Of a DNA stretch of 64,000 bases, positions 18,565 to 64,000 are shown one piece after another. Position 1 is the stretch's first letter. Each line of letters opens with the position of its first letter. The notes below the pieces were generated by a model, which made no database searches, had not been told where the DNA came from, and saw nothing but the letters and a program-made list of their open reading frames with translations. Source of the stretch: Myxococcota bacterium (lineage in GTDB: Bacteria; Myxococcota; B64-G9); contig JBFFBT010000001.1 of the NCBI GenBank assembly GCA_041560255.1, forward strand, positions 157-64,156. The letters are read 5' to 3'. Both the position numbers and the translations under genes were made by a program.

Positions 18565-18578
18565 GAGGAGGAAGTACT

Positions 18579-46093: not shown

Positions 46094-46114
46094 CGGACTA
46101 TCTCACGATCAGCT

Positions 46115-46330: not shown

Positions 46331-46351
46331 GGATTGGATGCTCCTTGTGGG

Positions 46352-47452
46352 CTATGTTCTCTGACGCATTGTGGCGCCGACCATTACGCAAAACACGAGA
46401 CCGATGATGACCCCGATCTGTCCGAACAAACCCGGACCGCCTGTTTGGAGTACTCCGGAGCTCAGGCTGTCCGGTACCGCTGCCAGGGTGAAGTTGTGTG
46501 CAAAGGCCGCGCCGGTTATCATTCCCATGACGAATATCGCCGCGTCCTGATCACCTTCACCGGATAAAAACAGTTGCCTGCCCGGACAACCCCCGGCGAG
46601 GATAAATGCCAGACCCGCAAGCACCATCCCGAGGAAATTCCAGATATGATTGCTGTGGGCCACGGGTTGGAGCGTAAAACCAGGTTCGATGCGACCCAGC
46701 GCGAGATTGGCCGACAGCGTTGCCACGATCATGGCTCCAACCCCATAAAGCAGATGAAAATCTTTTAAAAGAACCGCATCCCGGATCGAGCCCATGGTGC
46801 AAAAACGGGAACGCTGGGCTACGAAACCCACCAACAATCCCACCGCCGATGAGATCCATACCGAAGCATGCATCGCGCCGGGCCCTTTGGTGCTTTCAAA
46901 CAGAAAAGTCGGTTTGATAAAAACCAAAAACATTAAACCCAACATCAACGCAGGCATGAGAAATCCCGAGGCTTTGGGGGTTTTCCACGAGCGCCCGAGG
47001 GTGTAGCCGCGTTTGAGAAACCAGCAGCCCGCAGCAATGCCCGCGGTCAGACCCACAAGGCCTAAAACGGCGTTCAGATCACCGCCTGCCAGACGAAGCA
47101 GTGCTCTCCAAGGGCATCCGAGAAACGTAAGCGCTCCAATCATGGAAAATCCACCCAGGACAAAACGGACCAAAGGTTGTGAGCCTCCTCGAGCGCGAAA
47201 CTCGCCAAAGAAAATTGCAGCCGCCATCGCTCCCAAGACAAATCCGGGTATCTCGGGTCGCAGGTATTGAACCACCTCCGTGCGATGCAATCCCAGTGCG
47301 CCGGCGATATCTCTTTCGAAGCACGCCACACACACCCCCATATTGGGAGGATTGCCCAGAATGGGTAAAATGCCTGCGAGCAAACCGATGATGCCGCCTG
47401 AAAATACGATGCCCCGGCGGGAAGCAAAAAAACCAGCGATGCTGACTTTCAT
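46352..47452 (-). CDS. YeeE/YedE-family membrane protein (thiosulfate/selenium transporter-like)
   Basis: About 10 TM helices with conserved Cys-containing loops (GVCVACF, GGCPGRQLF). Paired with the TusA-like gene as in yeeE-yeeD units. Confidence 0.7.
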   Translation of the reverse strand: MKVSIAGFFASRRGIVFSGGIIGLLAGILPILGNPPNMGVCVACFERDIAGALGLHRTEVVQYLRPEIPGFVLGAMAAAIFFGEFRARGGSQPLVRFVLGGFSMIGALTFLGCPWRALLRLAGGDLNAVLGLVGLTAGIAAGCWFLKRGYTLGRSWKTPKASGFLMPALMLGLMFLVFIKPTFLFESTKGPGAMHASVWISSAVGLLVGFVAQRSRFCTMGSIRDAVLLKDFHLLYGVGAMIVATLSANLALGRIEPGFTLQPVAHSNHIWNFLGMVLAGLAFILAGGCPGRQLFLSGEGDQDAAIFVMGMITGAAFAHNFTLAAVPDSLSSGVLQTGGPGLFGQIGVIIGLVFCVMVGATMRQRT

Positions 47453-47752: not shown

Positions 47753-50149
47753 TTGGAGCTTTCGATGAGTCTGGTTGAAAAAAAAAGATCCTTTTGGTCA
47801 AAGCTGCTTATTGTGGTCATGAGCCTGGTGGTTGCGGCTTGTTCGGGCGAACCCTCATCCGACGATGACGGGCAGGAGCCCTCTCATCTGCTTGCCTGTC
47901 TGTCCGAATACCACAAGATCGATCTGCACGCGGAAGCAAGCTTGCAGGCCGAGTTGTCGTTCGAGCCCATCCAGAGCGAAAATGATGAGGTATGCTGCGG
48001 CACAGTTGGTTGTCTGTCCCAGATCGAACAGGAGTTTGAGCGCTGGCGACAAGAACCCGTCTCTCTCCTGGGTCAGGTGGTGGACGAGCAGGGCAGAGTG
48101 GTTGCAAATGCGCGTGTATCCATCGCAGATGTAGAGGTAACCACCGATTTTAAAGGGGTTTTTCATGTCACCGTTCCTTCTCGCAAGAATCGGTGGCTGC
48201 GTATCGAAGCCGACGGTTTTCGGTCCCTTCTGCTAGGCGTGCATTTGACCGGAAGCCCTTTTGCGCAATTGCTGCAGTTGGGCCCTTTTGTGTTGCATCG
48301 AAACCATCTGGCGCCCAAAAAATTGTTGTTTGCCGGTGACTTTATGATGGGTCGCAGGTATATGGATCCCCAGGGTCTTTTTGACGAGTTTGAGATTCCG
48401 GTCGATGATCCCTCTGCCTGGATACAGCCTTCAAATCCCGCGCTGGGAAGCCGGAGGGTGGTCTCTTTTGTAAAACCAATATTTGATGCGGCGGATTGGG
48501 CCACCGTCAACCTGGAGACGACCGTGACGCAGCGACCCACCACTCCGGATATGGAGAAAAAACATATTTATTTTACGTTGCCCGGATCTTTGGCTGGATT
48601 GCAGGAGCTGAAAATCAGCCATGTCGGTATGGCCAACAACCATGTTTGTGACTATCAATCCATGGGGTTTCGCGATACTCTCGAGCATTTGAACGGGGCC
48701 GGCATTGCATACTACGGCGCCGGTATGGACAGAATCTCTGCTTTTGGTGCCAGGTATGTAAATGTAGGAGATACATCGCTGGCATTGCTGGCGATGACTT
48801 CGGTGGGACCTGGAGATACGACTTCGTGCGCGGCCGCGGATGATGGTTTTGGGGCAGCGGATTTGAGCGATCTCGATTCGGTTCGAAAGGCCATAGCGCA
48901 TCAACGGCAGGCCGGTCACCTTCCGATTGTGCAACTGCATACCGGGTGGGAGTATACCTATGAGCCGCCTGAAAGCTCGTTGAAGTACATGCATGCCGCG
49001 GCCGACAGCGGGGCCGGTCTGGTGGTTGCGCATCATCCCCACATGGCCCAGGGTTTTTCGATCTATAACGATGTGTTGTTGATGTATTCATTGGGTAATT
49101 TCGTTTTTGATCAGTATCGCAATGAAACCATGTTGTCTTTTGCCGCCGAGGTGAGGTTGAAATCCGGGGTTGTATCGGGAGTGGAAATCATTCCGGTCTT
49201 TGTCGAAGATTACGCTCCCCGGGTGGTTGCCGGTCCGTTGGGTGCGCGTCTCATCAGGCGGCTGGCCGAGTTTTCCGATCCTCCCGGGATTGCGTTGACC
49301 CAGCGCGCCGGACGGGGATGGCTCGATCTTGATCCCTCCATGTCCAAAGCGGTTTCACGCAAGGTGGTATTTCCCGTCAATATCGGATCGGACGGATGGA
49401 GTATCATTGATTTACGAGGTATCGCCGGTCCGGCCGAAAGCCTCGTCAAGATCAATGCGGATCATGCCGGCATCAAGGTGAGAACGGGTCGCGATTTGCT
49501 TCATTTCGGAGATTTTGAAGATAATGATATCGATGAAGATCTTCTCGAGCTGTCTCGCTGGGAGCTTGTAGGCGGCAGTCGCCCTTGCACGTTCGGGATG
49601 CGTGGCGCGGGTGCCTTGTGTCTGCAAACCGATGGCGGCGGCTCTCATGTCTATGCGTCTTCGGCCGATCTGTATGATCAAGTACGCTTGCTTGCTTTTG
49701 CGGATGCTTCGGATCAATTGACGCTCTTTGGGTATTTGCAGGCCACCTGTGCTGATTCGACCAAAGCGCATGTATCGCTGCTTCGGCAGGACGGGAGTGT
49801 TGCCCGCAAGCGTACGTATGAACTGGTTCGAGCCGGTACGCATCCCTGGATTCCTTTTGCCCGGGACATCGATCTCGGGATAGACGACTACGGCCTCGTG
49901 GAAGGCGTCAAAATCGGTTTTCGGTATACCGCTTCTCAGCCCGTGTCGACCGGAAGGGTCGTTCTAGATGATATTGCGGTCATATCTTGGGACGGCAACG
50001 AGCAGGTGGATCCAAAGACAGTGCAATTTGCCGGACAACATGCCAAAGATTTTTTGCGGGTCTCCGGTCCGATCGGATCTCACGAGTTGGAGTTGCATTT
50101 TGATCATTATCCGGCTGCCGTTTGTATGCCGACCGGGCGGATGGATTGA
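47753..50149 (+). CDS. lipoprotein with CapA/PgsA-type metallophosphatase (poly-gamma-glutamate capsule synthesis-like) domain
   Basis: Lipobox (LVVAAC). N-terminal CarbopepD_reg-like region. CapA motifs (LLFAGDFMMGRR, VNLETTVT, ANNHVCDY, YYGAG, LGNFVFDQ). Confidence 0.65.
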   Translation: MELSMSLVEKKRSFWSKLLIVVMSLVVAACSGEPSSDDDGQEPSHLLACLSEYHKIDLHAEASLQAELSFEPIQSENDEVCCGTVGCLSQIEQEFERWRQEPVSLLGQVVDEQGRVVANARVSIADVEVTTDFKGVFHVTVPSRKNRWLRIEADGFRSLLLGVHLTGSPFAQLLQLGPFVLHRNHLAPKKLLFAGDFMMGRRYMDPQGLFDEFEIPVDDPSAWIQPSNPALGSRRVVSFVKPIFDAADWATVNLETTVTQRPTTPDMEKKHIYFTLPGSLAGLQELKISHVGMANNHVCDYQSMGFRDTLEHLNGAGIAYYGAGMDRISAFGARYVNVGDTSLALLAMTSVGPGDTTSCAAADDGFGAADLSDLDSVRKAIAHQRQAGHLPIVQLHTGWEYTYEPPESSLKYMHAAADSGAGLVVAHHPHMAQGFSIYNDVLLMYSLGNFVFDQYRNETMLSFAAEVRLKSGVVSGVEIIPVFVEDYAPRVVAGPLGARLIRRLAEFSDPPGIALTQRAGRGWLDLDPSMSKAVSRKVVFPVNIGSDGWSIIDLRGIAGPAESLVKINADHAGIKVRTGRDLLHFGDFEDNDIDEDLLELSRWELVGGSRPCTFGMRGAGALCLQTDGGGSHVYASSADLYDQVRLLAFADASDQLTLFGYLQATCADSTKAHVSLLRQDGSVARKRTYELVRAGTHPWIPFARDIDLGIDDYGLVEGVKIGFRYTASQPVSTGRVVLDDIAVISWDGNEQVDPKTVQFAGQHAKDFLRVSGPIGSHELELHFDHYPAAVCMPTGRMD

Positions 50150-50300
50150 TACGAGAAATATCCCCTATGTCTGAGATGATTTCGTAAAGAGTTATGCTGA
50201 TCCCGACACCGGCCGGGTGGCATACCTCGAAACCGACGGGATCTATGGCGACAAAAAGATATTTGTCATGAGCATAATACGAGTTTGGGAGCGATGGAAA

Positions 50301-50660
50301 CTATTGTTCGTCCAACCAGCGGGCAATGGCCCTTTCGGTCTTGAAGGGCAGTTGCTCAAATTTGGCGGCCACCCCGGTTTTACCCTCTGCGGATGTCAAA
50401 CGGATGACCCGGCAATCTACCGACAGATAATCTCTTCTGGTTTCAGGATCGAGATTGATGATCAATTCGTCTCCCATCCTGACGGACTTGTCGGTGATGA
50501 AGTAGCATCCTCCGATGCCCAGGTTGCCTGGTTGGATTTCGCTCCATCCATCCGGATGCATGATGTGAAACTGAGTCTCGTAACGGGGTGATTCTCTGCG
50601 GTCCGGAATTTTGGATGCATAACCCGTCTCGATTTCTCCAATTTGGTTTTCCAACTTCAT
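50301..50660 (-). CDS. PilZ-domain c-di-GMP binding protein
   Basis: RRESPRY (RxxxR) and NLGIGGCYF (D/NxSxxG-like) motifs. SD is AAAAGGGGGAAG. Confidence 0.6.
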   Translation of the reverse strand: MKLENQIGEIETGYASKIPDRRESPRYETQFHIMHPDGWSEIQPGNLGIGGCYFITDKSVRMGDELIINLDPETRRDYLSVDCRVIRLTSAEGKTGVAAKFEQLPFKTERAIARWLDEQ

Positions 50661-50913
50661 TTCACTTTCTTCCCCCTTTTTGGTCTTCCAGCGCCAACTG
50701 CCTCTATGATTATCGTGACAGTCGCGTTTATATCGTTTCTTCCCGCAGCACGTTTTTTTTGCCCCCCCGGGCCGGATGCTTCAGGTCAATTCGAAATACA
50801 TGGTTGTTCGAAGTTGCTTGACTGAATTATAGCACGATCGGTAAAAAAAAAGCACAAGTCTTTTTTATTTTCTCGATTTTTTGCTTGCGTCCGGATGCGC
50901 GAGGAGAGCGAAA

Positions 50914-53547
50914 ATGAAAAACCAAACCTATAGAAAAGCGAGAGCCACACTTGGCTTTCTGGCCTTGGTGGCATTTGTGTATGTGGGGGTTCAAATTCTT
51001 GTGGCATACCAGTATGCGGTGCTCTCGGTCCAAACCGAGCAGCAGTTTGAAAATATCGAGACCGAGTCGATCGAAGAACGCAAGAAGCTCGAGGAGGCCA
51101 TTGCTCTGAAGATCGAGAACAACCGCAAGAAGTTTTTTTGGGCAACCTTCATATCCAACATCAGCGCCACCATCGGTATATTGGCGGCATTCGCTGGTAT
51201 TTGGATGGGATTCAGGCAATACCTTCAAGCCCAAGAGAAACATCAGCACGAGCAGGCTCGGGAGAGACGCGATCGGATCGCTACGGATTTGTCGGATTTG
51301 TGGCGGTCGGTCGCTAGTGAAAAACCGGCCGAGCGGGCTGGATGTGTCGCTCGGCTTCAGGATTTGTTGTCGGAGGATAAGGTTGAGTTTCATAAACGGG
51401 CAGTCTCGACTTTAGCCTTGATGGCGCGTATGCACAGGCAGGATGAAGCCTTGCAGGATACGTTGGTGCCGGTGGTGGAGGAATGCGTTCGAAAGTTGCC
51501 GTCCGAGGTGGTTACTTCGGTGTCTTGGCAGCGCACCCGTTTGTATCGAACGAATTTTTCCGGGGCGGTTTTGACGGGCATGGATTTCCGAGACGCTTTT
51601 TTGGAAGAAGCCGATTTTTCCCGCGCGGATTTACGCCGAGCGCGGTTTGACGCCGCTAGACTCAACGGAGCCAATTTCGATTATGCCGTATTGGATGGAG
51701 CGGTGCTCAAGCATGCCGATCTGGCTGGTGCTAGCTTCTGCAATGCAAGCTTGGTAGGGGCGGATATCGGCGATGTGATGCTTCTGGATGCGGATTTCTC
51801 CCAGGCTGATCTGAGGGGGACGGAAAAGAGTTGGGCCGATCTGGACATTACCCAGGCGAAAAACTGGCGTTCGGCCGGAATAGAATCCAAAATGCGGCAG
51901 GATCTGATTGAATCCTATGGGATGGGCCCTCAAAAACCGCGGGTTCTTATGATCATGTGGGAGATGGAGCCGGTTGTGTCGGGGGGAGGTTGGACGGCAG
52001 TGTATCATTTGGTAAAGCAGCTGAGCCGGCATGGAGCTGATTTGACCCTGATCATACCCTGGATGGACTCTCCGATTTCTCGAAGCATCTTCGGTAACGA
52101 GGTCAAGCTTGTGGCCGTGGGGATCGATGCTCAAGAACCGATAGCGACTCAGTATGCCGGTTGCCCGGCCGAGAGATACGGCGGCGGATCACCCATTTAC
52201 GCGGGATTGGATTACGCATCCGGATATGGGAGCGGCAGGTATACGACATCCAAGACCTTATCGGCGACCGATTTGGTCAATCGATTTACCGAAAAAGCGC
52301 TTGCATGGCTCCAAGCTGAAAGACCTCGGTTTGATGTGATTCACGCCCATGATTGGCTGTCGTTTCCTGCCGCCGGATTGATGGCCGAACGTTTGAAAAT
52401 ACCCTGGGTGGCGCACTTTCATTCCATTGAAGCGGATCGAAGAAAAATACCCACCGATTGGATTGCACGAATCGAAGCCCAGGCATGCCGGAATGCAAAC
52501 ACTGTGGTCGCTGTAAGTCGGGTGACTCGTGACAGGTTGGTGTCAATCTACGGCGCATCCGTCGAGGATGTCGTGGTGGTACCCAACTGTTTGTCGGATC
52601 AGCCGGCAACCTGGGAGCGTATCAATAATCCGGATCCCGGCTGGGTGGTTTTTGTGGGCAGAAGATGTTGGCAAAAGGGATCTGACTTGTTCATTCATAT
52701 TGCCAGAGCGGTCCAACGCATGAGGCCGCAGACCAGATTTGCCATGTTTGGAAAGGACGCTTCTGGTGAGGGCTTCTTATATGATCACGGTGCGGGCCGC
52801 AGCGGCCGGCTCGCAAGCACTCCGGAGTTGGTGCATGCCACCCACATCCGGCAACCCGATCTGTATCTCGAGCCGTTCGGACAGGATGAAATGAGCCAGG
52901 GTGTGCAGATGATCTCCCAAATACGAGCGATCGAGTATCAACCTCCGGGAATGATATCCCAAATTGATTTCCCTGAGGGCATGGATGAGCAATCCGCCAA
53001 ATGGTTGTTGCTCTCCATGGGAGCTGCGTTGTTTGAGCAGGGCCCGCAGAGTGGTTTTACCCATATGGCTGTCTTGCAGGATCATGGCAGAGGTAGACCT
53101 CCCGTGTGGGGATTTTTGGTGTATGCCCCTGCCTTGAGACAGTTGCCTGGAAAGCATTTTGAGGAGCCGATATCCGTCCATCCGTTCACGCCTTGGCCCG
53201 CGAGAAAATCGGTATTCAGCAATGCTTCGATCCTGGTGGCCCCGTCGCGGCACGAGCCTTTCGGCATGCAGGTGTTGGAGGCCATGCAACAAGGCGTGCC
53301 GGTCATGGTCAGTCAAAACGCCGGAGTCTGCGAAGTCGCAAAGTCGGTCATTTGCATCGATCCTTTAGACGTATCTCAAACCGCCGAAAAAATCGTCGGA
53401 TTGCTCGCAGATGCCGATGCTTGGCAGAAACAAGTCCGAGTGCAGCGGGCGGAAATCGCGGGTTACGCGGATAGGGGGTATGAAAAGATCATGATGGATG
53501 TGTGGCTCGAGCCTGGGAGTAAAGTAGGGGATGCAGGTCTCCCTTGA
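50914..53547 (+). CDS. membrane-anchored pentapeptide-repeat protein fused to a GT-B glycosyltransferase (glycogen/starch synthase-like)
   Basis: N-terminal TM helix plus coiled-coil. Tandem pentapeptide repeats follow (ADFSRADLRRARFDAARLNGANFDYAVLDGAVLKHADLAGASF...). The GT-B domain has SGGGWTAVYHL and an EPFGMQVLEAMQQGVPV signature. SD is GAGGAGAGCGAAA before the ATG at 50914. Confidence 0.7.
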   Translation: MKNQTYRKARATLGFLALVAFVYVGVQILVAYQYAVLSVQTEQQFENIETESIEERKKLEEAIALKIENNRKKFFWATFISNISATIGILAAFAGIWMGFRQYLQAQEKHQHEQARERRDRIATDLSDLWRSVASEKPAERAGCVARLQDLLSEDKVEFHKRAVSTLALMARMHRQDEALQDTLVPVVEECVRKLPSEVVTSVSWQRTRLYRTNFSGAVLTGMDFRDAFLEEADFSRADLRRARFDAARLNGANFDYAVLDGAVLKHADLAGASFCNASLVGADIGDVMLLDADFSQADLRGTEKSWADLDITQAKNWRSAGIESKMRQDLIESYGMGPQKPRVLMIMWEMEPVVSGGGWTAVYHLVKQLSRHGADLTLIIPWMDSPISRSIFGNEVKLVAVGIDAQEPIATQYAGCPAERYGGGSPIYAGLDYASGYGSGRYTTSKTLSATDLVNRFTEKALAWLQAERPRFDVIHAHDWLSFPAAGLMAERLKIPWVAHFHSIEADRRKIPTDWIARIEAQACRNANTVVAVSRVTRDRLVSIYGASVEDVVVVPNCLSDQPATWERINNPDPGWVVFVGRRCWQKGSDLFIHIARAVQRMRPQTRFAMFGKDASGEGFLYDHGAGRSGRLASTPELVHATHIRQPDLYLEPFGQDEMSQGVQMISQIRAIEYQPPGMISQIDFPEGMDEQSAKWLLLSMGAALFEQGPQSGFTHMAVLQDHGRGRPPVWGFLVYAPALRQLPGKHFEEPISVHPFTPWPARKSVFSNASILVAPSRHEPFGMQVLEAMQQGVPVMVSQNAGVCEVAKSVICIDPLDVSQTAEKIVGLLADADAWQKQVRVQRAEIAGYADRGYEKIMMDVWLEPGSKVGDAGLP

Positions 53548-53704
53548 TCTCAATTTGGGGTTGATTCCCGCGGGACTTTCTCTACAATAGGCAGATCGGC
53601 GGCAGGGAATGCATGAAATGCCGCATGGTATGATGGAGAAGGAGCCCACCCTGCCTACAAGAAACTTCGCGCATGCAAGGAGCGCATCATCAAAAGGAGG
53701 AGTC

Positions 53705-54244
53705 ATGAAACCGGTTTTGGGCATGTTGTGCGTATGCGGTATGTTGTTGATTGGATTCTCGGCTTGTAAACGTTCGGATACCGAATCCAAACCCCAAGAG
53801 ACCACCCAAAAAGAGACGGCGGTGAAATCCGAGCCGACTGATGAAGCCGATCAACTCGAAGCGGACAAACCTGCCGCCATACCGGCCCCTTCGGATGTAG
53901 CTGCCATCCCCGAGGATGCCGAGCGCACCGACTCGGGTATTGGATCAAAAGTTTTGGAAAAAGGCAGTGGAGGTAAACATCCGACCGCAACGAGCCGAGT
54001 CAAGGTTCACTATTCGGGCTGGACCACCGATGGAAAGATGTTCGACAGTTCGGTGATGCGGGGTCAACCAGCGGTATTTCCTTTGGATCGCGTAATCCCT
54101 GGATGGACCGAGGGGGTTCAATTGATGGTGACGGGGGAAAAACGCAGGTTTTGGATTCCCGAGGAGCTGGCTTACAAGGGACGCCCGGGAGCTCCTGCAG
54201 GAATGCTGGTTTTCGATGTGGAGCTGATCGAAATCCTTGAATGA
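53705..54244 (+). CDS. FKBP-type peptidyl-prolyl cis-trans isomerase lipoprotein
   Basis: Lipobox GFSAC. C-terminal FKBP domain (VKVHYSGWTTDGKMFDSS ... FPLDRVIPGWTEGVQLM ... LVFDVELIEI). Strong SD AAAAGGAGGAGTC. Confidence 0.85.
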   Translation: MKPVLGMLCVCGMLLIGFSACKRSDTESKPQETTQKETAVKSEPTDEADQLEADKPAAIPAPSDVAAIPEDAERTDSGIGSKVLEKGSGGKHPTATSRVKVHYSGWTTDGKMFDSSVMRGQPAVFPLDRVIPGWTEGVQLMVTGEKRRFWIPEELAYKGRPGAPAGMLVFDVELIEILE

Positions 54245-54855: not shown

Positions 54856-54900
54856 GATCGTGATGATGATACCTGGCTGGTCGAGATCGAAGTTGCCGTG

Positions 54901-55590
54901 ATGGAACAAGTGGAGCTGGTTTCTCTGTTTCTTTTGGGCCTAATTGGAACGGGTCATTGTTTGGGCATGTGTGGACCTCTCGTGTTGGCCTTGCCTGTAA
55001 GATCGGGTAAAATCAGCGGACATGTATTTTATCATCTGGGACGCATCTGCACCTACCTGCTCACCGGCTCACTGCTGGGAACTGTCGGATCGGGACTCAA
55101 AGAGGCTGCCTCGTCACAAAGCTTTCAAGCGCCGACGGGTTTTTTATGGGCTCAGATGGTTTTATCCCTGTTGGCTTCATCGGTTATGCTCGGCTTCGGC
55201 CTCATTCGGTTGGGAGTGGTGGCTGAACCTGCTTGGATGTCCGGCGCCACCCCTGCCAAGCTGCCGGGATTTGCCCGGATTCAAAAGAAGGTCTGGGTGG
55301 AAAGACGGGAGCGTGCCATCTTTTGGTTTGGTGTGTTGCTGGGTTTTCTGCCCTGCGGTCTTTCGTGGGGTGTCTTTGCCAAGAGTTTGGCGACCGGAAG
55401 CGTTTTTTGGGGGGCCATGGCGGCGCTTGCGTTCGGTTTGGGCACGTTGCCGGGATTGTTGCTTCTTGGCGGCGGACTTGGAAGCTGGATGCAGCGATAC
55501 CGGGCTTGGTCGGATCTTGTGTCCGGCCTCATGATGGTGGGCATGTCGATATCGACCGCCATGCAGGCAATCCGGCCTTGGTTGCAGTGA
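54901..55590 (+). CDS. DsbD_2/CcdA-like polytopic membrane protein with HCxxMCGP motif
   Basis: GTGHCLGMCGPLVLALP in the first TM helix and a second Cys pair (FLPCGLSWG). Six TM helices. Confidence 0.55.
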   Translation: MEQVELVSLFLLGLIGTGHCLGMCGPLVLALPVRSGKISGHVFYHLGRICTYLLTGSLLGTVGSGLKEAASSQSFQAPTGFLWAQMVLSLLASSVMLGFGLIRLGVVAEPAWMSGATPAKLPGFARIQKKVWVERRERAIFWFGVLLGFLPCGLSWGVFAKSLATGSVFWGAMAALAFGLGTLPGLLLLGGGLGSWMQRYRAWSDLVSGLMMVGMSISTAMQAIRPWLQ

Positions 55591-55783: not shown

Positions 55784-56443
55784 ATGGACTTAGTAGGTTT
55801 TATTGGGCAGTTCAATCCATTTTCTCGAAGCGGTGTTTGGATGTTTCTCATTTTGTTGGTGTCGGTTTTTACCTTGACCCTGATCATCGAAAGAGCCTAT
55901 GCGCTTTGGTTTCGCTTTCGGATAGACGCGCCGCAAATATTGGGGCGGGTTTTGTCTTTTGTGGACGCGAACAACTACAGCCGGGCTATCGAAGTGTGCA
56001 ACGCCCAAAAGGATCACCCGGTGTATACAGTGCTCAAATCCGGTTTACTCAAGGCCAACCGGTCGGATTTGGAGATACGCAGAGCCCTCGAGCACACCAC
56101 CATGAAGATCGGCCCGCAAGTGCAAAAGCGTACGCACTATTTGGCCACATTGGCGAACGTGGCCACACTTTTGGGTCTTTTGGGCACCATATTCGGTCTG
56201 ATTATGGCATTTGAAGGCTTGGAAATGGCTTCCGCCGCCAAGAAGCAGGAGGTCTTGGCCAGAGGTATTTCGCTGGCCATGCAGACCACGGCATTCGGAC
56301 TCATTGTAGCCATCCCGACCAGTATTGCGCATGCGGTGCTCAGCTCGAAGCAAAATGCGTTGATGGATACCATAGAAGACAGCGCCATGACCTTGTTTTC
56401 TCATCTGTCATCGAAAAACCGCATGGGCGCCATCAATCAGTAA
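55784..56443 (+). CDS. MotA/TolQ/ExbB-family proton channel (AglR-like)
   Basis: Three TM helices with the conserved C-terminal helix pair (LATLANVATLLGLLGTIFGLIMAF ... AMQTTAFGLIVAIP). SD is GGGAG before the ATG at 55784. Confidence 0.8.
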   Translation: MDLVGFIGQFNPFSRSGVWMFLILLVSVFTLTLIIERAYALWFRFRIDAPQILGRVLSFVDANNYSRAIEVCNAQKDHPVYTVLKSGLLKANRSDLEIRRALEHTTMKIGPQVQKRTHYLATLANVATLLGLLGTIFGLIMAFEGLEMASAAKKQEVLARGISLAMQTTAFGLIVAIPTSIAHAVLSSKQNALMDTIEDSAMTLFSHLSSKNRMGAINQ

Positions 56444-56596
56444 ACCGGGAGTCCGCCGGGTTGACCAAACTCCATTGCAGGCTTTATGTTTTGTCATGGA
56501 GGCCTAGATGAATTTTTATGTTGTACAACTGATGATGTGGTTTGCGTTATTTGAGTACATATCGTTTTGAAGCGGTGACGAGTTGGGAGACCGAGC

Positions 56597-57112
56597 ATGC
56601 GTAGAAGAGTGTCGGATTCTGGTCCCGTGCAGCTGAACATGGTGCCTGTCATGAACCTGTTTTTGGCTATGATTCCGTTTCTACTCATGTGCGCTGCGTT
56701 TTTTCAAGTATCGGTGATAAATGCCTCGGTGCCGGCGCTTTCCGAAGGTGAGGAAAAAGAAGATCAACCGGGCGCCGAAGAAGATCGAAAAATAACCCTC
56801 AACCTGCAAATCACCAAGCAAGGTTTCAGTTTGACTGCATCGGGTGATCTTTCGGAAGAAGAGCTCAAGAAAATCGGCGGAGTTATTGCCAAGCAAGGGG
56901 ATGAATACGACTTTGAAAAACTGTCCGATCATGTGAAGAAGGTGCACGATAAGTACAAAAAGAGCGACACCATTATCATACTGCCCGAGAAGGACATACT
57001 CTACGATACGATTGTCAAGTCCATGGATGCAACCCGCGAGCGCGTATTGGACAAGCGTCAGGATGTGAGAGAGTATCTGTTTACCAACGCAGTGGTGTCG
57101 TCGATTCTTTGA
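56597..57112 (+). CDS. ExbD/TolR-family protein (AglQ/AglS-like) 1
   Basis: LNMVPVMNLFLAMIPFLLMCAAFF single TM anchor, followed by a periplasmic domain. Confidence 0.75.
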   Translation: MRRRVSDSGPVQLNMVPVMNLFLAMIPFLLMCAAFFQVSVINASVPALSEGEEKEDQPGAEEDRKITLNLQITKQGFSLTASGDLSEEELKKIGGVIAKQGDEYDFEKLSDHVKKVHDKYKKSDTIIILPEKDILYDTIVKSMDATRERVLDKRQDVREYLFTNAVVSSIL

Positions 57113-57299
57113 TGGTGGTCCGATCTTTGGCTGAAAGCGGTTGTTTTCCTATGGAGGCCAGGGTGGAAGTCTTTGAGAAACAAGTGATTATAGAACAATA
57201 GAGGTGGTCATACGAGCTTTGGGTAGGCGGACTACATTGGATTGAAGCCCTTTATCGGGTTGTGACGAAACGGGCCCTAAGACCGGCGGGAATACCAAG

Positions 57300-57785
57300 A
57301 TGCGAAGAGCGGCACGGCACAGTCAGCAACATATGAATCTCAATCTAACCTCCATGATGGACATGTTCACCATTATTTTGGTGTTCTTGTTGTTCAGCTT
57401 TTCAAATCAGGATCAAAACCTGAAGTTGGATCCGGACATCATGCTGCCCGATTCGTCTGCGATGATTGAGTTCAAGTGGGCCATCAATATATATCTGTCG
57501 GAAACCGAATTGAAAGTCGAGGGAGCCACCCTTGCCAAAGTCAGGGATGGTAAGTTGACCGATGTCAAGGTGGACCAGGAGAAAAAACGAGTATTGCCTT
57601 TGTACAATCTTTTGAAGAAATATCGTGAGACCGAATCACAGGAAAAAACCAATCCCACTGCGGACGAAACCGTCATCAGCTTTCAAGCGGACAAAAAGTT
57701 GCCCTTTGACGTTATCGATTTTGTCATGAAAACTGCTGCGCAGGCAGGATATCCCAACTTTCGCTTCGTGGTGTTGAAAAAGTGA
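57300..57785 (+). CDS. ExbD/TolR-family protein (AglQ/AglS-like) 2
   Basis: NLTSMMDMFTIILVFLLFSF anchor. A second paralog follows the first. Confidence 0.7.
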   Translation: MRRAARHSQQHMNLNLTSMMDMFTIILVFLLFSFSNQDQNLKLDPDIMLPDSSAMIEFKWAINIYLSETELKVEGATLAKVRDGKLTDVKVDQEKKRVLPLYNLLKKYRETESQEKTNPTADETVISFQADKKLPFDVIDFVMKTAAQAGYPNFRFVVLKK

Positions 57786-57795
57786 AAGGAGGTGG

Positions 57796-58248
57796 GTGTT
57801 GATGTTGGTCCTATCTGGTTTGTTGGTGGCAGCCCTTTTGGCGGGTCATGGAGATACGGACAAGCGTGTTTCGGATTTTGGTCCGCGGGGTGAGAAAGTA
57901 TTTTCAAAGATATGTGTAAAGGACGGTATTCGAGTCGCGCGAAAGCGAGTTCGCTCGAAGAAGAAGCCTCGGACTCGAGCCGTAAGGGCCAGAAAATCTA
58001 CTCCCAAGCCTACTGCCCGTCCGACGCCTGTGCCTACATCCCAATCCGGTGAGTTGAACGTTCCTTTGGGATCGAGCCTGGGTCGAACAACCCGGATCGA
58101 GTTCGATGCGCAACTCATCAAGGGTCAAACCACCAAGGCCGGCGAGGTTCAGATTTTGGAGCGTAAGGATGTGGCGCTTACGAGTATGGTGAAAAGAAGA
58201 ACCAGTTTTCGAGAGGAAATCATTCAAACCGTTTTCCCCGATAAATAA
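57796..58248 (+). CDS. membrane-anchored basic/Pro-rich protein (possible TonB/TolA-like energy-transducer partner)
   Basis: N-terminal TM helix, a Lys/Arg/Pro-rich spacer (KKKPRTRAVRARKSTPKPTARPTPVPT), and a small C-terminal domain. The assignment rests on context after the ExbB-ExbD-ExbD genes only. Confidence 0.35.
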   Translation: MLMLVLSGLLVAALLAGHGDTDKRVSDFGPRGEKVFSKICVKDGIRVARKRVRSKKKPRTRAVRARKSTPKPTARPTPVPTSQSGELNVPLGSSLGRTTRIEFDAQLIKGQTTKAGEVQILERKDVALTSMVKRRTSFREEIIQTVFPDK

Positions 58249-58286
58249 GTAGTGGTTGGATAAAAGTTGCATGGCAGGGAGAAATC

Positions 58287-60728
58287 ATGTCGGCCAAGAC
58301 GTCCAGCAACGATGAAAATGCGGTATTGCAGGTTTTTATATTTAAAGAGGGGCAATTTTGGGGCAGCGAATGTTATGCCCAAAATATCATTGTGGTCGGC
58401 AGAAGCTCGGACATCGATCTTGAGCTCGATGAGGATGTTATCTCGCGCAAACATGCTCGGTTGACGATTGAAGATGATGCCATTCGGGTAGAAGACCTGG
58501 ACAGCGCAAACGGAACCTATGTCAACGGCGAGCCGGTGCATGACTGTAAAATAAGCAGCTTGGATGAAGTGTCCATCGGCTCTTTCAACTTGAAATTCAA
58601 ATTGCTCGGAAAGCGCAAATCCAAGCCGAAATTTGACGAGCACACCGTGGTATCCGGGAAGAAGCTGGTTGTGGACGAAGAGTTTACCGAGGTTGTATCT
58701 CCCGAAGAGCTGATGCAGGAGCAGAAAAAATCCAAACAGGCCGAGGAACATAGATTACCTCCGAAAGAATCAGAGTCTCCAATCGGTAGGTTTTTTGGAA
58801 AAAAAGACAAGAGCTCGAAATCCCGCAGGGAGGATTCGTCCAAACCTAGGCCGCAATCCGAACCCAAGCTGCCCGCATTACCCGACGAGAAGGATCCGGC
58901 TATACGACAGAAAGTTGCAAAATCCCAAACGTCACCACCTACATTGCCGGTCGAGCGCATCGAAGCCTTGCCGGTTGTGCCGGCAGAACCGCCCCAACTG
59001 GTATCCCCTTCGGGTACCCGGCAAATCCGCAGGCAGACTGAAGAAGCACCTCTCAAGGTGGAACGTCGCAGCGTGAAATCCGAGGAGTCGGGTTCCGATT
59101 TGAGCCCACCCGGCGGTGCGCAAGCTTCCAGGCAAGCCGGATTGGCCGAGATTCTTTTCGATAAGCATGCTTTAAAGCCGGATGTAACGGGCCGTGAAAT
59201 GGACGCCGATGCTTGGATCGAAGCCGCGGAAGATGATGATGAGGTGTTGGTCGAAGAGTATCAAAAAGACTTTGTAGAGCCTTTTTCTTTGTTGAACAAC
59301 CTTATTCGGGAAAACTTCTCCAAGCCGCATGTAGCCGTGGAAGATGCAATGGTTGTCGAGGTCATCAGTTACAATCGGGACAAGTGTGTATTGGGATATG
59401 ACCAAGTATCGCGAGGGAGCCGTTTCCGGACCGGAAATCCCAAGAAGGAGTTGGCACGCTTCAAACGCTCGGGTGATTGCAGGGTGATCATTACGGATGA
59501 AATGACCGGAGGCATTGTTGCAGGGGGTCGAACCATTAAAGTCGATGATGTCAAGACGCATGACAATCGGATTTCGAAACGGAGAGCCGATCGATATGCA
59601 TATCATTTGAGTCGGGGTGACTATGCCAATATCATTTTGAAAGACGGTGGGGGATATTTCATTCGGTTTACTCAGCCTCCCCGTATTCCGAAACCGGCGC
59701 GGAAGTGGAAACTGGATCCGTTTTCTCTCAAAATCCTCGGCTCGGTTTTTCTGGCCCATTGGATCATGATCGTGATTTTGGGATTGTTCAGCAAGCAAGT
59801 GGTGGCTGCCAACCAGACGGATATTGATCGGTTTGTGAAGTTTGCCGTGAAAGATCTCGCGCTGGAAGTGCAGGAAGAAGAGCCCGAGATCCCTCTGGAT
59901 CAATTGCCGGAGCCCGAAAAACCCGCAGTGGCACCTACGCCCCAAGAAGCGCCGAAGGAGATCAAGGAAGAACCACCCAAACCTTCAAAAGAAGTGAAAA
60001 AGACCCCGCCTCGGTCCAAACGCAGAAACAACCGATCACGACAGCGGGGCGATGGCGGAGGCGGCGCCGACAAGTCGTCCGGCGATGGAGGCGGCGGTGT
60101 GGGCATGATGGCTGCATTGGGTAACCTGTCGCAGAGAAAATCCTCTCAAAATATCGTAGCTGCGGTATCCAACATCGATGCAGTCCGTTCGCCCGGAGGG
60201 CGTTCTCGCTACAAGCTGTCAGGCGTCGTCACCAAGCTTCCGACCTCCAATGTCGTTGTATCCCAGGGCCATGGCGTGGGTGTGAAGGCGGGGGTGGACT
60301 TGTTGCGGGGTGGAAAGGGTCGCGGCGGTTTGGCCGGCTTGGGGCCTGGAGCCATCGGCGGCGGAAAAGCAGGAAAGCGGGCCGTGGGAGGAGTGGTGTT
60401 CGAGGCTCCCAAAAGGCGTATGACGGTGCGGGGTCATCTGAGTCGAGAAGCCATCGCCGAAGTTGTCAAGAAACACCTTCGAGAGATCCAATATTGTTAT
60501 GAAAAAAACCTGCTTCTCAATCCCAAGCTGGCCGGCAAGCTCATCATGGAGTGGACCATCACAACTTCGGGTGCGGTGAGCCTGGTGAAGACGGCCCAAA
60601 GCTCCATGAATTCTCCGGCGGTCGCTTTGTGTATCAGCGGTAAAATTAAACAATGGAAGTTTCCCCAACCCAAAGGTGGTATCGTTGTGGTGACGTATCC
60701 GTTCATTTTCAACTCCATCGGTTTTTGA
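58287..60728 (+). CDS. FHA-domain protein with central TM segment and AgmX/PglI-type TonB-C-like C-terminal domain (GltG/NfsG-like)
   Basis: N-terminal FHA (IIVVGRSSDIDLELDEDVISRKHARLTIEDDAIRVEDLDSANGTYVNGEPV). A TM helix at about residue 500. Gly-rich linker. C-terminal EIQYCYEKNLLLNPKLAGKLIMEWTITTSGAV ... CISGKIKQWKFPQPKGGIVVVTYPFIF matches the AgmX/PglI C-terminal domain pattern. Confidence 0.65.
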   Translation: MSAKTSSNDENAVLQVFIFKEGQFWGSECYAQNIIVVGRSSDIDLELDEDVISRKHARLTIEDDAIRVEDLDSANGTYVNGEPVHDCKISSLDEVSIGSFNLKFKLLGKRKSKPKFDEHTVVSGKKLVVDEEFTEVVSPEELMQEQKKSKQAEEHRLPPKESESPIGRFFGKKDKSSKSRREDSSKPRPQSEPKLPALPDEKDPAIRQKVAKSQTSPPTLPVERIEALPVVPAEPPQLVSPSGTRQIRRQTEEAPLKVERRSVKSEESGSDLSPPGGAQASRQAGLAEILFDKHALKPDVTGREMDADAWIEAAEDDDEVLVEEYQKDFVEPFSLLNNLIRENFSKPHVAVEDAMVVEVISYNRDKCVLGYDQVSRGSRFRTGNPKKELARFKRSGDCRVIITDEMTGGIVAGGRTIKVDDVKTHDNRISKRRADRYAYHLSRGDYANIILKDGGGYFIRFTQPPRIPKPARKWKLDPFSLKILGSVFLAHWIMIVILGLFSKQVVAANQTDIDRFVKFAVKDLALEVQEEEPEIPLDQLPEPEKPAVAPTPQEAPKEIKEEPPKPSKEVKKTPPRSKRRNNRSRQRGDGGGGADKSSGDGGGGVGMMAALGNLSQRKSSQNIVAAVSNIDAVRSPGGRSRYKLSGVVTKLPTSNVVVSQGHGVGVKAGVDLLRGGKGRGGLAGLGPGAIGGGKAGKRAVGGVVFEAPKRRMTVRGHLSREAIAEVVKKHLREIQYCYEKNLLLNPKLAGKLIMEWTITTSGAVSLVKTAQSSMNSPAVALCISGKIKQWKFPQPKGGIVVVTYPFIFNSIGF

Positions 60729-60756
60729 TGGGATACTTTGAGAGAGGGAGGTCCAG

Positions 60757-61443
60757 GTGAGTCCTGTTACCAAGGGCAAGTCCCGATATATATTGGCGCT
60801 GGTTGTTTTTTTGGGATGGTTGGAAGTTTGTCCGGCCTATGCCGAGCAATCCGGTCAGGATTATGGAAAGGTCTACGCCATCCAAGAAAAGCCGTTCATC
60901 ATGAACCATGAAATCAGCTTGTCCATGGCGTTTTTACCCTTGGATGCCTTCTACAAATACATGGTTGTCTCCGGACACTATACCGCGCATTTTGATGATT
61001 TTTGGGCTTGGGAGGTGGTGCATTTGTCCTGGGCCACTTTGGCTCTCGATACGGGATTGAAAAAAGAGCTCAATGACCGATGGGGTATTACCGCCATGGA
61101 TACGCCCCGGCTCGAGTATTTTCTCGACAGCAACCTGATGATCAAACCCTTGACCGGTAAAATGGTTCTTTTTGATGATTGGCTCATCAACATGGAGAGC
61201 TTTGTTTTGGTGGGATTGGGCGCCCAGCGGTTTGAGTCGGGGGCTTGGTATCCTGCCATGGATGCAGGGATTGGAATGCGGGTTTTTATGAGTAATACGT
61301 TGTCTATCCGGGTCGAAGCGCGCGAGTATGTCTACATGGCGGATTCGAAAGTCGACAGTGTTTTGTATTTTGGAGCTTCGCTCTGCTACAACGCTTTTGC
61401 CGGCGAGCAGCGTTTGGGCGAGAGGTTGGAGGTTGGACCATGA
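60757..61443 (+). CDS. outer-membrane beta-barrel protein (GltA/GltB / NfsA/NfsB-like), paralog 1
   Basis: Signal peptide, alternating beta-strand pattern, and a C-terminal aromatic residue. GTG start with SD GGGAGG. Confidence 0.55.
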   Translation: MSPVTKGKSRYILALVVFLGWLEVCPAYAEQSGQDYGKVYAIQEKPFIMNHEISLSMAFLPLDAFYKYMVVSGHYTAHFDDFWAWEVVHLSWATLALDTGLKKELNDRWGITAMDTPRLEYFLDSNLMIKPLTGKMVLFDDWLINMESFVLVGLGAQRFESGAWYPAMDAGIGMRVFMSNTLSIRVEAREYVYMADSKVDSVLYFGASLCYNAFAGEQRLGERLEVGP

Positions 61444-62132
61444 GATCGTCGACTCGGCTGGCTGCCGGAGTGGTGATGTTGATCGGGTGGCTGGGCTCCC
61501 TTGTGACCGCATCCGCCGAGGATCAAGACACCTATCGGGAGGAAAGCGCTTACGGACCCATTCAGGAACATATCTATAAGATGGATCATGAGATATCCAT
61601 CGGATGGGCCTATTTGCCGTTGGATCCTTACTACAAGGGTTACGGAGCTCAATTGGCGTATACCATCCATTTCAATCCGTTCATCGCGCTCGAGTTGTTT
61701 CGAGTGGGTTGGTCATACAACGTGGATACGGAGCTCAAAACCAAAATCATCGATACCGCCCCCGAGGTTTCCTTGGCCGAGTTTCCTGCGGTGGTGTTTT
61801 TTGAAAACACGAATCTATTATTCAAGCTGTTTTACGGTAAGCAATCATTTACCAACCGCACGGTGGTGCATTTTGAAATTTTTGCCACCCTGGGTGCGGC
61901 CTTTCTTTTCCGTAATCCCTATCCGATTTGGGAGGGCGACTTGGACAATGCCCGCTACGAATTTGGGGTCAACGGCGGATTTGGAGTCAGGTTTTGGTTC
62001 AACCCGACTTGGTCGATTCGTATCGATTTGCGCGATACGGTAACCTTGCTTTCTTTGAATCAGGGCGTCGACGATGAAAGCTGGTTGGATAACTCGGCCA
62101 TGATCGGCTTGTCTCTGGCATTCAACCTATGA
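61440..62132 (+). CDS. outer-membrane beta-barrel protein (GltA/GltB / NfsA/NfsB-like), paralog 2
   Basis: Paralogous to the preceding ORF (shared YKMDHEIS.GWAYLPLD.YYK and ...GVNGGFG.RFW.....IR.D motifs). 4-bp ATGA overlap with paralog 1. Confidence 0.55.
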   Translation: MRSSTRLAAGVVMLIGWLGSLVTASAEDQDTYREESAYGPIQEHIYKMDHEISIGWAYLPLDPYYKGYGAQLAYTIHFNPFIALELFRVGWSYNVDTELKTKIIDTAPEVSLAEFPAVVFFENTNLLFKLFYGKQSFTNRTVVHFEIFATLGAAFLFRNPYPIWEGDLDNARYEFGVNGGFGVRFWFNPTWSIRIDLRDTVTLLSLNQGVDDESWLDNSAMIGLSLAFNL

Positions 62133-62144
62133 GGTGATAGCACG

Positions 62145-63701
62145 ATGGGCTCTCAAACGGTGAAATCGTTGGTGGCCGTGGCGATCCTGCTGGTTATGGG
62201 TATTGACGGATCATCAGAGGCGCGCAGGCGAAAAATCATAAGCCGACCCGAGATCGTCGAAACGCAGGATTCGAAGCAAAACGAGCCGGGCGCCGTCAGC
62301 GATATCCAAGGAATTGGGCGGGGTGATACCGCGGTGGGACCGCAGATCTTCGATCGGGGTGTGGAGCTGTTTTACCAGAACAACCATATCAATGCGGCCG
62401 CGTTTCTGTGGGCTTACATGGTGGGCAACCCGCCCGGGGCCGACAGATACGAGTATGCCGAGTTTTTCTTCGCTCGTTGTATGGAGGCGCTGGGATTCAC
62501 CCAGGCGGCCATGGAGTATTATTTCAATGTGGCCAAAAACCGCACCAGTCCGGAATTGTTGCCGGATGCCTTACAGTCCATAGAAAATCTCAGCCGCCGG
62601 GTGCCGATCGATCAGGAAATGATCTATATGGATCTGATCTATGACTCAACGTTTGGGTATCTCAGCGGAGAATTGACGGATTTTGTCGAGTATATTAAAG
62701 GTTGGCTGGATTACCGCAACGGCTCCATCAAATGGGGGCAACGTCATTTCAGCCATATACGACCCGGATCATACTATGATTATAAAGCCAAATATGTGCA
62801 GGCCGTCTACGAGTTGGTCAAGCACAATGACGAAGAAGCGCTGAAATCTTTCGAACAAATCCTCGCGTCGGATGTCGAGCAAACCGATGTGATCAATGCA
62901 TCCCGTCAAAGTATTGCACGGCTTTTGTTCGAGCAGCGCAAATATGAGAAAGCCTATGAAATGTATGAGACCATCGATGCGCCGATTGAAAAACAGGCTT
63001 CGGTGTTTCTCGAAGAAGCTTGGACCAAATATTTCCAGAAGGACTACCGACGGTCCATGGGATTGTTGTATGCGCTCGAAGCGCCGGCGTTTTATCGATA
63101 TTTCAATCCCGAAAAATTTCTCATCAAGGCATTGATCTACCAAAATTTGTGTCATTACAATGTCGCAAAAGACGCTGTTGCGGAGTTTCGCGACGAGTAT
63201 TCCGAGGCAATCGCTTCGATTTATGATCGACTGGATTTGACGCATAATAGCGTCATCTTGGACGCCGCATTGCAGGATCCCTCCATAAAGGAATTGGAGC
63301 AGTTTCAATCCAGATTGGTTACCGAGCTGGGTCGATTGGATGACTTTGAAAAATATTGGATCCAAAATCGCATGCTCGAACATCTCAAAAGAATATACGA
63401 GCTGAAGAGACAACAGGTCGATCAGGCAATCCGGGCACGAATTGAGCCGGCCGTGAGGAAAGTCGCTGAGAGGCTTCTCGAGTACGAAGAACAGATGAAC
63501 ATTCTCGAGTACGAGATAGGTTTGTCCATTTACAAGCGAATTAAAGGAGCTCCTTCCATTGCAACGAAAGAAAAACAAACCATTCCATACTCCGACAAGC
63601 GGGTATACTACGAATTCGATGGTGAGTTTTGGAGCGATGAGCTGCACGACTTGCGGTTTTTCATCGAAGATCGCTGCTTTGGCGAAGAACGTTGGGAGTA
63701 G
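62145..63701 (+). CDS. TPR-like helical repeat protein with signal peptide (GltC/GltE/NfsC-like candidate)
   Basis: N-terminal signal sequence followed by TPR-like repeats throughout. Confidence 0.5.
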   Translation: MGSQTVKSLVAVAILLVMGIDGSSEARRRKIISRPEIVETQDSKQNEPGAVSDIQGIGRGDTAVGPQIFDRGVELFYQNNHINAAAFLWAYMVGNPPGADRYEYAEFFFARCMEALGFTQAAMEYYFNVAKNRTSPELLPDALQSIENLSRRVPIDQEMIYMDLIYDSTFGYLSGELTDFVEYIKGWLDYRNGSIKWGQRHFSHIRPGSYYDYKAKYVQAVYELVKHNDEEALKSFEQILASDVEQTDVINASRQSIARLLFEQRKYEKAYEMYETIDAPIEKQASVFLEEAWTKYFQKDYRRSMGLLYALEAPAFYRYFNPEKFLIKALIYQNLCHYNVAKDAVAEFRDEYSEAIASIYDRLDLTHNSVILDAALQDPSIKELEQFQSRLVTELGRLDDFEKYWIQNRMLEHLKRIYELKRQQVDQAIRARIEPAVRKVAERLLEYEEQMNILEYEIGLSIYKRIKGAPSIATKEKQTIPYSDKRVYYEFDGEFWSDELHDLRFFIEDRCFGEERWE

Positions 63702-63719
63702 GAACAGGTTGGGAAAACC

Positions 63720-64000
63720 ATGAGAACCATACATCATAAAATCGTTGTTGGTATGTTTTTGGTGATCGTATCCCCTTTGGCTTGGAGTTTTTCACTGGTC
63801 GATCAAGCTCAGGAACAAGCCGAATTTGTCGAGGGTCTCAAGCGGGACATCATCAAGGTAGATCACACCATCAATGTGACCAAGGAGCACATTAAAAAGT
63901 CGAAAGGCGCTGTATTTTTACCGGATATCATATTTCGATTGGCGGAGCTGTATGTAGAAAAGTCCCGATTGGTATATTATCTGGCAGTAGAAACCCAAGG
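63720..64000 (+). CDS. partial ORF (5' end only), signal-anchored, TPR-like
   Basis: Start at ATG 63720. N-terminal hydrophobic segment (IVVGMFLVIVSPLAW). Runs off the window end. Confidence 0.35.
   Translation, partial: MRTIHHKIVVGMFLVIVSPLAWSFSLVDQAQEQAEFVEGLKRDIIKVDHTINVTKEHIKKSKGAVFLPDIIFRLAELYVEKSRLVYYLAVETQ

Follow-up and report, generated by a model that had tools for sequence, protein, structure and literature searches.

The window analysed here is the whole 64,000-nucleotide stretch (positions 157 to 64,156) of contig JBFFBT010000001.1 from the Myxococcota bacterium assembly GCA_041560255.1, and at positions 55784–64000 it carries a gene cluster for a trans-envelope machine of the Agl-Glt/Nfs family. 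We judge that this cluster probably encodes a machine driven by the proton motive force, spanning the cell envelope and of the same type as the G5 cluster of Myxococcus xanthus, here with its own motor, and that it handles an adhesin or polymer more likely than it drives gliding. The analysis established the identity of the parts and their order in relatives, the GltG-type architecture of the transducer with its TonB-like predicted fold, and two outer-membrane barrels of the OMP_myx_plus family. A preliminary description had placed an Agl/Glt/Nfs-like gene set at 55784–64000, and all of its genes were recovered there on the plus strand. It had also spoken of a proton-motive-force-driven surface transport or motility system; the family holds, but by gene order, sizes and neighbour the nearest Myxococcus counterpart is G5 and not the gliding or Nfs clusters. 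Protein families were scanned with Pfam and NCBIfam/TIGR models, and scores against equivalog models are quoted as bits/cutoff. The cluster contains the following genes.

55784–56443, plus strand: AglR-like channel subunit of the TolQ/ExbB/MotA family, 219 amino acids (aa) (PF01618, 93 bits)
56597–57112, plus strand: ExbD/TolR paralogue 1, in the AglQ position, membrane Asp replaced by Asn (PF02472, 53 bits)
57300–57785, plus strand: ExbD/TolR paralogue 2, in the AglS position, membrane Asp kept (PF02472, 55 bits)
57796–58248, plus strand: putative small exported GltF/CglF-like protein, 150 aa (weak NF033764 match, position, conserved C-terminus)
58287–60728, plus strand: GltG-type transducer, 813 aa (PF00498, 60 bits; NF033768, 114 bits)
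60757–61443, plus strand: outer-membrane barrel paralogue 1, putative GltA/GltB family (TIGR04565, 65.4 bits)
61440–62132, plus strand: outer-membrane barrel paralogue 2, putative GltA/GltB family (TIGR04565, 63.1 bits)
62145–63701, plus strand: GltC-like periplasmic protein, 518 aa (weak NF033756 match, 51 bits)
63720–64000, plus strand: GltD-like tetratricopeptide-repeat (TPR) protein of about 1100 aa, first 93 residues (79% identity to relative L004)

The eight intact open reading frames (ORFs) and the start of the ninth are separated by gaps of 153, 187, 10, 38, 28, −4, 12 and 18 nucleotides (nt) in order, so that the six gaps after the motor genes show operon-like spacing; the GC content equals that of the remaining window. 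Since the same order recurs at 44–89% identity in about 15 independent loci from metagenome-assembled genomes (MAGs), chance ORFs are excluded and the genes are real. These loci came partly from a scan of one genome per GTDB species, which returned 53 loci related to the cluster, and partly from loci fetched directly; L-numbers denote such related loci from other genomes. Their full row reads channel, ExbD1, ExbD2, F-like, G-like, barrel 1, barrel 2, C-like, D-like, X and E-like, with a tail made of the D-like TPR protein (about 1100 aa), a coiled-coil protein X of 166–213 aa and a GltE-like TPR protein of about 670 aa. In L002 and L004 a convergent Sua5 gene closes the row. X (L004, 18741–19241; L002, 11678–12319) has no family match, separates the D-like from the E-like gene in every complete relative, and may be the unnamed extra core-complex gene of Luciano et al. 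The window holds the first nine genes of this eleven-gene operon, and X, the E-like gene and the rest of the D-like gene are absent because the contig ends. The D-like gene is cut both by the window end and by the end of the 64610-nt source contig, of which the window is nearly the whole, so the downstream genes cannot be read here, but longer contigs carry close homologues of the 813-aa protein; an exact-protein look-up for sequence beyond the contig end returned just one 3.1-kb Logan contig or nothing.

More distant relatives are arranged differently. F-G-barrel-barrel-C-D without a motor is found in other Myxococcales and Myxococcota MAGs, and Bdellovibrionota and Oligoflexia have a channel-ExbD-ExbD-G row accompanied by a divergent barrel-C-D block. 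A third arrangement, D-E-channel-ExbD-ExbD-G, is what Luciano et al. 2011 (PMC3169522) call the "core complex".

The proton-channel trio proposed earlier was borne out by one PF01618 channel protein and two PF02472 ExbD proteins. The channel ORF opens at GTG 55775, and the favoured start is ATG 55784, with a GGGAG motif 9 nt ahead. The protein has three hydrophobic segments and is 74–82% identical to the first gene product of the row in most close relatives. The two ExbD paralogues resemble each other solely around the membrane helix, the first having one such helix. The same pair in the same order occurs in the motor-containing loci of Myxococcota. Among the Bdellovibrionota loci, about half have the pair, and just one ExbD paralogue was detected in each of the others.

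The check for a conserved membrane Asp in both TolR-like subunits failed, since paralogue 1 carries Asn where D23 of E. coli TolR and D25 of E. coli ExbD align. The 15 closest loci (L002, L004, L005, L006, L008, L011, L015–L019, L021 and L029–L031) all carry this Asn, and paralogue 2 retains Asp in all loci. Asp stands in both paralogues of three Myxococcota loci that are less closely related, and of Bdellovibrionota loci; in the core-complex group paralogue 1 has Ser or Ala at this position. With Asn in one subunit and Asp in the other, protonation of the stator is probably limited here to one site, on paralogue 2. By gene order, the Asn-bearing paralogue occupies the AglQ position. In Myxococcus, AglQ and AglS are both described with a membrane Asp (PMC9389320), AglQ D28N paralyses the motor (PMC3858216), and two-hybrid assays show binding of AglR to GltG and to NfsG (PMC3169522; PMC3858216). 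A stator subunit that naturally has Asn in place of Asp bears on how heterodimeric 5:2 motors work. The spacers between the motor genes, 56444–56596 (153 nt) and 57113–57299 (187 nt), compare with 18–48 nt in L002 and L004; they gave no Rfam match and no meaningful repeats, and their promoter- and terminator-like sites were near shuffled expectation.

The 813-aa transducer consists of an N-terminal FHA domain (PF00498, 60 bits), an acidic, Pro-containing linker, a second domain with an FHA-like predicted beta-sandwich fold, one membrane helix (residues 483–501), a linker that is Pro/Glu/Lys-rich and then Gly-rich, and a TonB-like C-terminal domain. It scores 196/650 against the GltG model, and its C-terminus passes the AgmX/PglI model NF033768 (114 bits, cutoff 40). 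For residues 690–813 the predicted structure (pLDDT 79) adopts a TonB-like fold; its top eleven matches in the PDB are TonB C-terminal domains, the best being Helicobacter pylori TonB (6sly, E = 9.6e-4). The preliminary description was right to read an FHA N-terminus and an AgmX/PglI-type TonB C-terminal domain here, but it named TIGR03901 as the model for the latter; TIGR03901 is the MYXO-CTERM model, and the correct one is NF033768. M. xanthus GltG has the same five-part architecture, namely FHA (1–114), central FHA (190–329), helix (330–348), a disordered segment wrapping GltD and a TonB-like domain (544–640) (PMC11761067).

An exhaustive HMMER search with residues 318–813 returned 282 clusters (50% identity) at E ≤ 1e-30, many of them full-length; the GltG-like transducer family is large, not rare. 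A profile search with the full-length transducer alignment was swamped by FHA-domain proteins and returned no named Myxococcus GltG. Apart from the cluster, the MAGs Meg22_46_Bin_104 and Zod_Metabat.807 hold one or two extra GltG-like copies with no other cluster genes detected nearby (L007, 9920–12037; L014, 5193–7418; L020, 5711–7750).

The 150-aa protein preceding the transducer is rich in Lys, Arg and Pro and had been taken for a Pro/Lys-rich, TonB-like membrane anchor. It reads instead as an exported GltF/CglF-like protein with a putatively cleaved signal peptide, because its N-terminus is hydrophobic and those of its orthologues are signal-peptide-like, because only its C-terminal 60 or so residues are conserved (64–89%) and the CglF/GltF match falls there, and because its gene invariably lies between the second ExbD gene and the GltG-like gene in relatives. 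Against NF033764 (CglF) it scores 23.7 bits (E = 3.7e-5), under the cutoff of 90, and the orthologue of a relative matches this model too. GltF of Myxococcus, which is periplasmic and largely disordered, links the C-terminal domain of GltG to GltC.

Behind the transducer, both barrels (228 and 230 aa) pass the TIGR04565 OMP_myx_plus model at 65.4 and 63.1 bits (cutoff 60). They are paralogous (27% identity, E = 1e-23) and their genes overlap by 4 bp (ATGA), which agrees with the paired GltA/GltB-like outer-membrane barrels described before and supports their reading, by family model, as a putative GltA/GltB-family pair. Barrel 1 and its orthologues, which occur in all related loci, have a hydrophobic, signal-peptide-like N-terminus. 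The barrel profile found no sequence match in the PDB. Neither outcome named beforehand as refuting the preliminary description came about: the transducer C-terminus does match the AgmX/PglI model and the TonB fold, and both outer-membrane proteins pass OMP_myx_plus.

The 518-aa protein has a hydrophobic N-terminus and a conserved position after the two barrels, and scores 51 bits against NF033756 GltC (E = 9e-14, cutoff 450), compared with 69 bits for its L004 orthologue. From 63720 onward, the window holds 93 residues that match the start of an 1102-aa TPR protein in L004 at 79% identity; the D-like protein gives generic TPR/YbgF matches only. In the 518-aa protein Pfam gives no significant TPR, a correction to the TPR scaffolds proposed earlier. 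For the E-like protein of the relatives, outside the window, generic TPR models score higher than the GltE model.

Several of these parts would also suit a common Tol-Pal or Ton system that maintains the envelope or imports nutrients. The motor belongs to the same superfamily, the best generic matches of the channel are TolQ and ExbB, the transducer has a TonB-like C-terminal fold behind a long periplasm-crossing linker, and the D-like protein has YbgF-like repeats. Yet the TolQ, TolR, ExbB and ExbD equivalog cutoffs are missed by wide margins: the channel falls under all TolQ, ExbB and MotA cutoffs (TolQ 72.6/221, ExbB 51/206), and an ExbD paralogue scores 19/127 against TolR. The row contains no gene for TolB, Pal or a TonB-dependent receptor, and it has instead a heterodimeric pair of different ExbD paralogues, a transducer with cytoplasmic FHA domains, dedicated barrels, TPR scaffolds and specific GltG, GltC and OMP_myx_plus matches. 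We consider a Tol-Pal or Ton identity close to negligible in probability.

M. xanthus possesses the paralogous clusters G3 (nfs), G4 and G5 beside the gliding clusters G1, G2 and M1 (Luciano et al., PMC3169522). G5 comprises MXAN_1327 (D, 1089 aa), MXAN_1328 (C, 538 aa), MXAN_1329 (B, 246 aa), MXAN_1330 (G with FHA, 749 aa) and MXAN_1331 (F, 162 aa) (PMC3169522). Its order is F-G-barrel-C-D as in the window, and its sizes of 162/749/246/538/1089 aa compare with 150/813/228–230/518/about 1100 aa here. The two differ in that here the motor genes are joined to the front of the row and two barrels are present, against one listed for G5, and in that the relatives of the window cluster add the coiled-coil protein and the 670-aa TPR protein. 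G4 (MXAN_1919–1923) has G and D proteins of similar size but lacks F and the barrels and follows another order.

A further link to G5 comes from MtsC, which in M. xanthus is MXAN_1334 (PMC12475490), three genes from MXAN_1331. Homologues of MtsC adjoin the cluster in about 12 related loci. They stand immediately ahead of the row in L004, L005, L013, L015, L018, L030 and L031, where L002/L017 have an end fragment, and are divergent beside F in L023, L024, L025 and L051. All five complete copies scanned pass the MtsC equivalog (cutoff 350) at 490–587 bits, and the truncated copy of L013 scores 348. The following copies are MYXO-CTERM proteins with thrombospondin type 3 repeats.

L004, 6259–7554: MtsC
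L015, 4225–5571: MtsC
L005, 5838–7259: MtsC
L023, 8045–9547, minus strand: MtsC
L051, 8113–9855, minus strand: MtsC

The mts locus is said, in work by Zhang et al. from 2007, to affect S-motility and cell cohesion. On the grounds of gene order, protein sizes and the MtsC neighbour conserved in relatives, we assign the window cluster as the putative counterpart of G5 with its own motor attached, which is its best resemblance in Myxococcus, ahead of Glt and Nfs.

A true gliding (A-motility) motor, in which the anaerobe would glide by a compact Agl-Glt machine, was also weighed. All seven core parts are present together with GltA, GltB and GltF homologues, and the Agl-Glt machinery (AglRQS, GltA–K and CglB) shares with the cluster a homologous motor, a GltG-type transducer, the GltA/B barrels and GltC-, D-, E- and F-like proteins. 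Moreover, Bdellovibrio glides with similar expanded core sets lacking GltH–K (PMC3169522). Such an expanded core (for example Bd1474–1481) places motor, G, F, barrel, C and D in one locus, and related loci occur in Bdellovibrionota MAGs, but at 21–47% identity, which for G is mostly confined to the C-terminal domain, with other order and orientation, and with Asp in both ExbD proteins. The Myxococcus gliding genes occupy three loci as opposed to one operon here, where in addition Asn replaces the Asp of the AglQ position. GltH, GltI, GltJ, GltK, CglB and AglZ were not seen among the scanned window ORFs (most of those with at least 200 aa) or in the conserved flanks of the relatives. Gene order and the MtsC neighbour fit G5, and an insertion in MXAN_1327, its gltD homologue, leaves gliding and twitching normal (Luciano et al., PMC3169522). 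Anaerobic Myxococcota genomes are reported to lack most A-motility-specific genes. A gliding motor is, in our estimate, unlikely.

Still less probable, and in our view very unlikely, is a machine of the Nfs kind for spreading a polysaccharide coat in spore or cyst formation. The Nfs system (NfsA–H) is likewise a single cluster of A–G-type parts in which the I, J and K modules are missing, and its motor is of the same type (PMC3858216; PMC3169522); capsule-synthesis (PGA_cap) and glycosyltransferase genes lie 2–8 kb upstream of the cluster. But Nfs borrows AglRQS encoded elsewhere, contains NfsH and follows the order A–H, whereas here the motor is in the operon, a GltH/NfsH homologue was not seen in the ORFs and flanks scanned, and the genes run F-G-A-B-C-D. 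Relatives do not share the polysaccharide genes found upstream as neighbours of the cluster, and sporulation-specific genes are reported to be largely absent in anaerobic Myxococcota.

Several points weigh against a G5-type machine that handles an adhesin or polymer. No MtsC homologue occurs anywhere in the 64-kb window. The assignment to G5 draws on order, sizes and neighbour and is putative. The equivalog cutoffs are missed by the GltG-like (196/650), GltC-like (51/450) and CglF-like (23.7/90) proteins, so they are Glt-like rather than established orthologues of a named Glt protein; GltE, tested on the protein of a relative, likewise fell short (188/225). Motor function is not guaranteed, since the Asn of paralogue 1 is the very change that paralyses AglQ (D28N, PMC3858216). 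Finally, the cargo is proposed from the gene neighbourhood in relatives, and the G5 cluster itself is functionally unexplained. We nevertheless favour adhesin or polymer handling over focal-adhesion gliding, because the gliding-specific modules were not seen in the window ORFs scanned or in the flanks of the relatives, and the nearest counterpart is G5.

Modelled on the structural model of the Myxococcus machine (PMC11761067) and on TolQR/ExbBD biology, the G5-type machine would work as follows. In the inner membrane, the two ExbD paralogues would form a heterodimer ringed by five AglR-like subunits, and proton flow via the sole Asp, on paralogue 2, would produce a stroke, either conformational or rotary. 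The transducer would be coupled to this motor through its membrane helix, with its FHA-like domain seated beneath the channel. For the N-terminal FHA domain a cytoplasmic binding partner is expected; the predicted contact in Myxococcus is GltI, which was not seen here. The transducer linker would cross the peptidoglycan and wrap the GltD-like TPR pillar, where the TonB-like domain would dock. The GltF-like protein would bridge this domain to the GltC-like protein, which would hold the paired GltA/B-like barrels in the outer membrane. The output would be force at the outer membrane that moves or remodels a surface component. As a guess from the gene neighbourhood in relatives, the cargo is more likely a surface adhesin or polymer serving cohesion or surface organisation, with MtsC as the best lead. 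A bolder version, possible though rather unlikely, is that in this clade of sulfate-reducing, probably strictly anaerobic Myxococcota the whole machine in one operon, with an asymmetric stator of which one TolR-like subunit alone can take up a proton, stands near the ancestral form that later gave rise to the gliding and spore-coat machines, and that it positions or tensions an MtsC-type cohesion adhesin and does not move the cell.

The family, its unexplained paralogues and the single-locus expanded core sets of Bdellovibrio have been known since 2011. Paralogous Glt-like clusters have been without an explained function since then, and this locus and its 15 or so relatives offer a compact version with the motor in the operon, which the conserved MtsC neighbourhood ties to the unexplained G5 cluster.

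The machine is also physically linked on one contig to the dsr, apr and qmo genes of sulfate reduction. Family matches in the window include AprA (906 bits) and DsrK (729 bits) as well as an HdrA/QmoB-like protein, a siroheme synthase and a DsrN-like amidase, and a full dissimilatory sulfate-reduction block spans positions 398–22300.

1708–2814, minus strand: qmoC
2843–5086, minus strand: qmoB
5083–6423, minus strand: qmoA
7554–9455, minus strand: aprA
about 9443–9880, minus strand: aprB
10117–11106, minus strand: lysR
11451–12677, plus strand: dsrA
12726–13808, plus strand: dsrB
14229–15911: oxidoreductase
15924–18020: dsrN-like gene
about 18516–18893: dsrC
20592–22277: dsrK

An 840-aa ORF at 11535–14057 (minus strand) is antisense to dsrA and dsrB, has no family match and is almost certainly not a gene. 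Positions 398–19572 are colinear, at 50–89% amino-acid identity, with contig JAUXGL010000071.1 of MAG CSMAG_2928, whose order is qmoCBA, aprAB, lysR, dsrAB, oxidoreductase, dsrN, dsrC; the same MAG has the eleven-gene row on another contig (L015). Since both gene sets lie on one contig in the window, their co-occurrence is not a binning artefact, and sulfate-reducing relatives of the myxobacteria keep at least one such machine, though most A-motility-specific genes are reported missing from them.

The host is a probable uncultured sulfate-reducing relative within the Myxococcota, with its taxonomy taken from the labels of the submitters. All informatively labelled relatives of the cluster among the GTDB species representatives are Myxococcales, Myxococcota, Kofleriaceae, Bdellovibrionota or Oligoflexia, and the others bear generic labels only (Deltaproteobacteria, Proteobacteria, bacterium). 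The window has an MXAN_6577-like Cys-rich protein, and relatives have the MYXO-CTERM MtsC genes. Of the non-myxobacterial sulfate-reducer background suggested at the outset, the second half was confirmed by aprA, dsrK, qmo and dsrAB on the contig, but "non-myxobacterial" finds no support in the labels of the relatives and their MtsC. Sulfate-reducing Myxococcota have been described previously (bioRxiv 10.1101/2021.07.06.451402; 10.64898/2026.07.10.737566). AprA was tried as a taxonomic marker and proved indecisive, being 80–84% identical to proteins of many phyla; it is too conserved across phyla to inform on taxonomy, and the gene neighbourhood of aprA is more useful.

Upstream of the cluster, the window holds the following genes.

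47753–50149: PGA_cap capsule-synthesis gene
50301–50660, minus strand: PilZ protein (PF07238, 37 bits), 5 kb upstream of the cluster
50881–53547: pentapeptide-repeat/glycosyltransferase (GT4) fusion, a real fusion
53609–54244: FKBP
54898–55590: DsbD_2

No homologue of any of these was present near the cluster in any related locus examined, so they are not counted as parts of the system; PilZ, the pentapeptide-GT4 fusion, FKBP and DsbD_2 had been considered as such and were rejected. The preliminary description had the PilZ gene and the fusion just upstream: both exist, but neither is a conserved neighbour and PilZ is 5 kb away. A plus-strand ORF at 50217–50591 was rejected as PilZ, which is the minus-strand gene.

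Elsewhere in the window, a 799-aa protein (28220–30619, plus strand) combines an MXAN_6577-like Cys-rich N-terminus (115 bits, cutoff 100) with Stig1, C-type lectin, Link and Lcl_C matches and is probably a secreted or surface carbohydrate-binding protein. The minus strand encodes a 953-aa fusion (33582–36443; NF037959, 105 bits) in which an MFS-like membrane domain is joined to a spermidine-synthase domain and TPR repeats form the C-terminus, and an 1137-aa subtilase (40991–44404; Peptidase_S8) with a weak MAM-domain match and no NCBIfam match. At 44921–47452 on the same strand, a protein of the cysteine desulfurase/SclA-like selenocysteine lyase family (453 bits) stands beside a putative selenium transporter of the YedE family (475 bits), a pairing that suggests a selenium-handling module.

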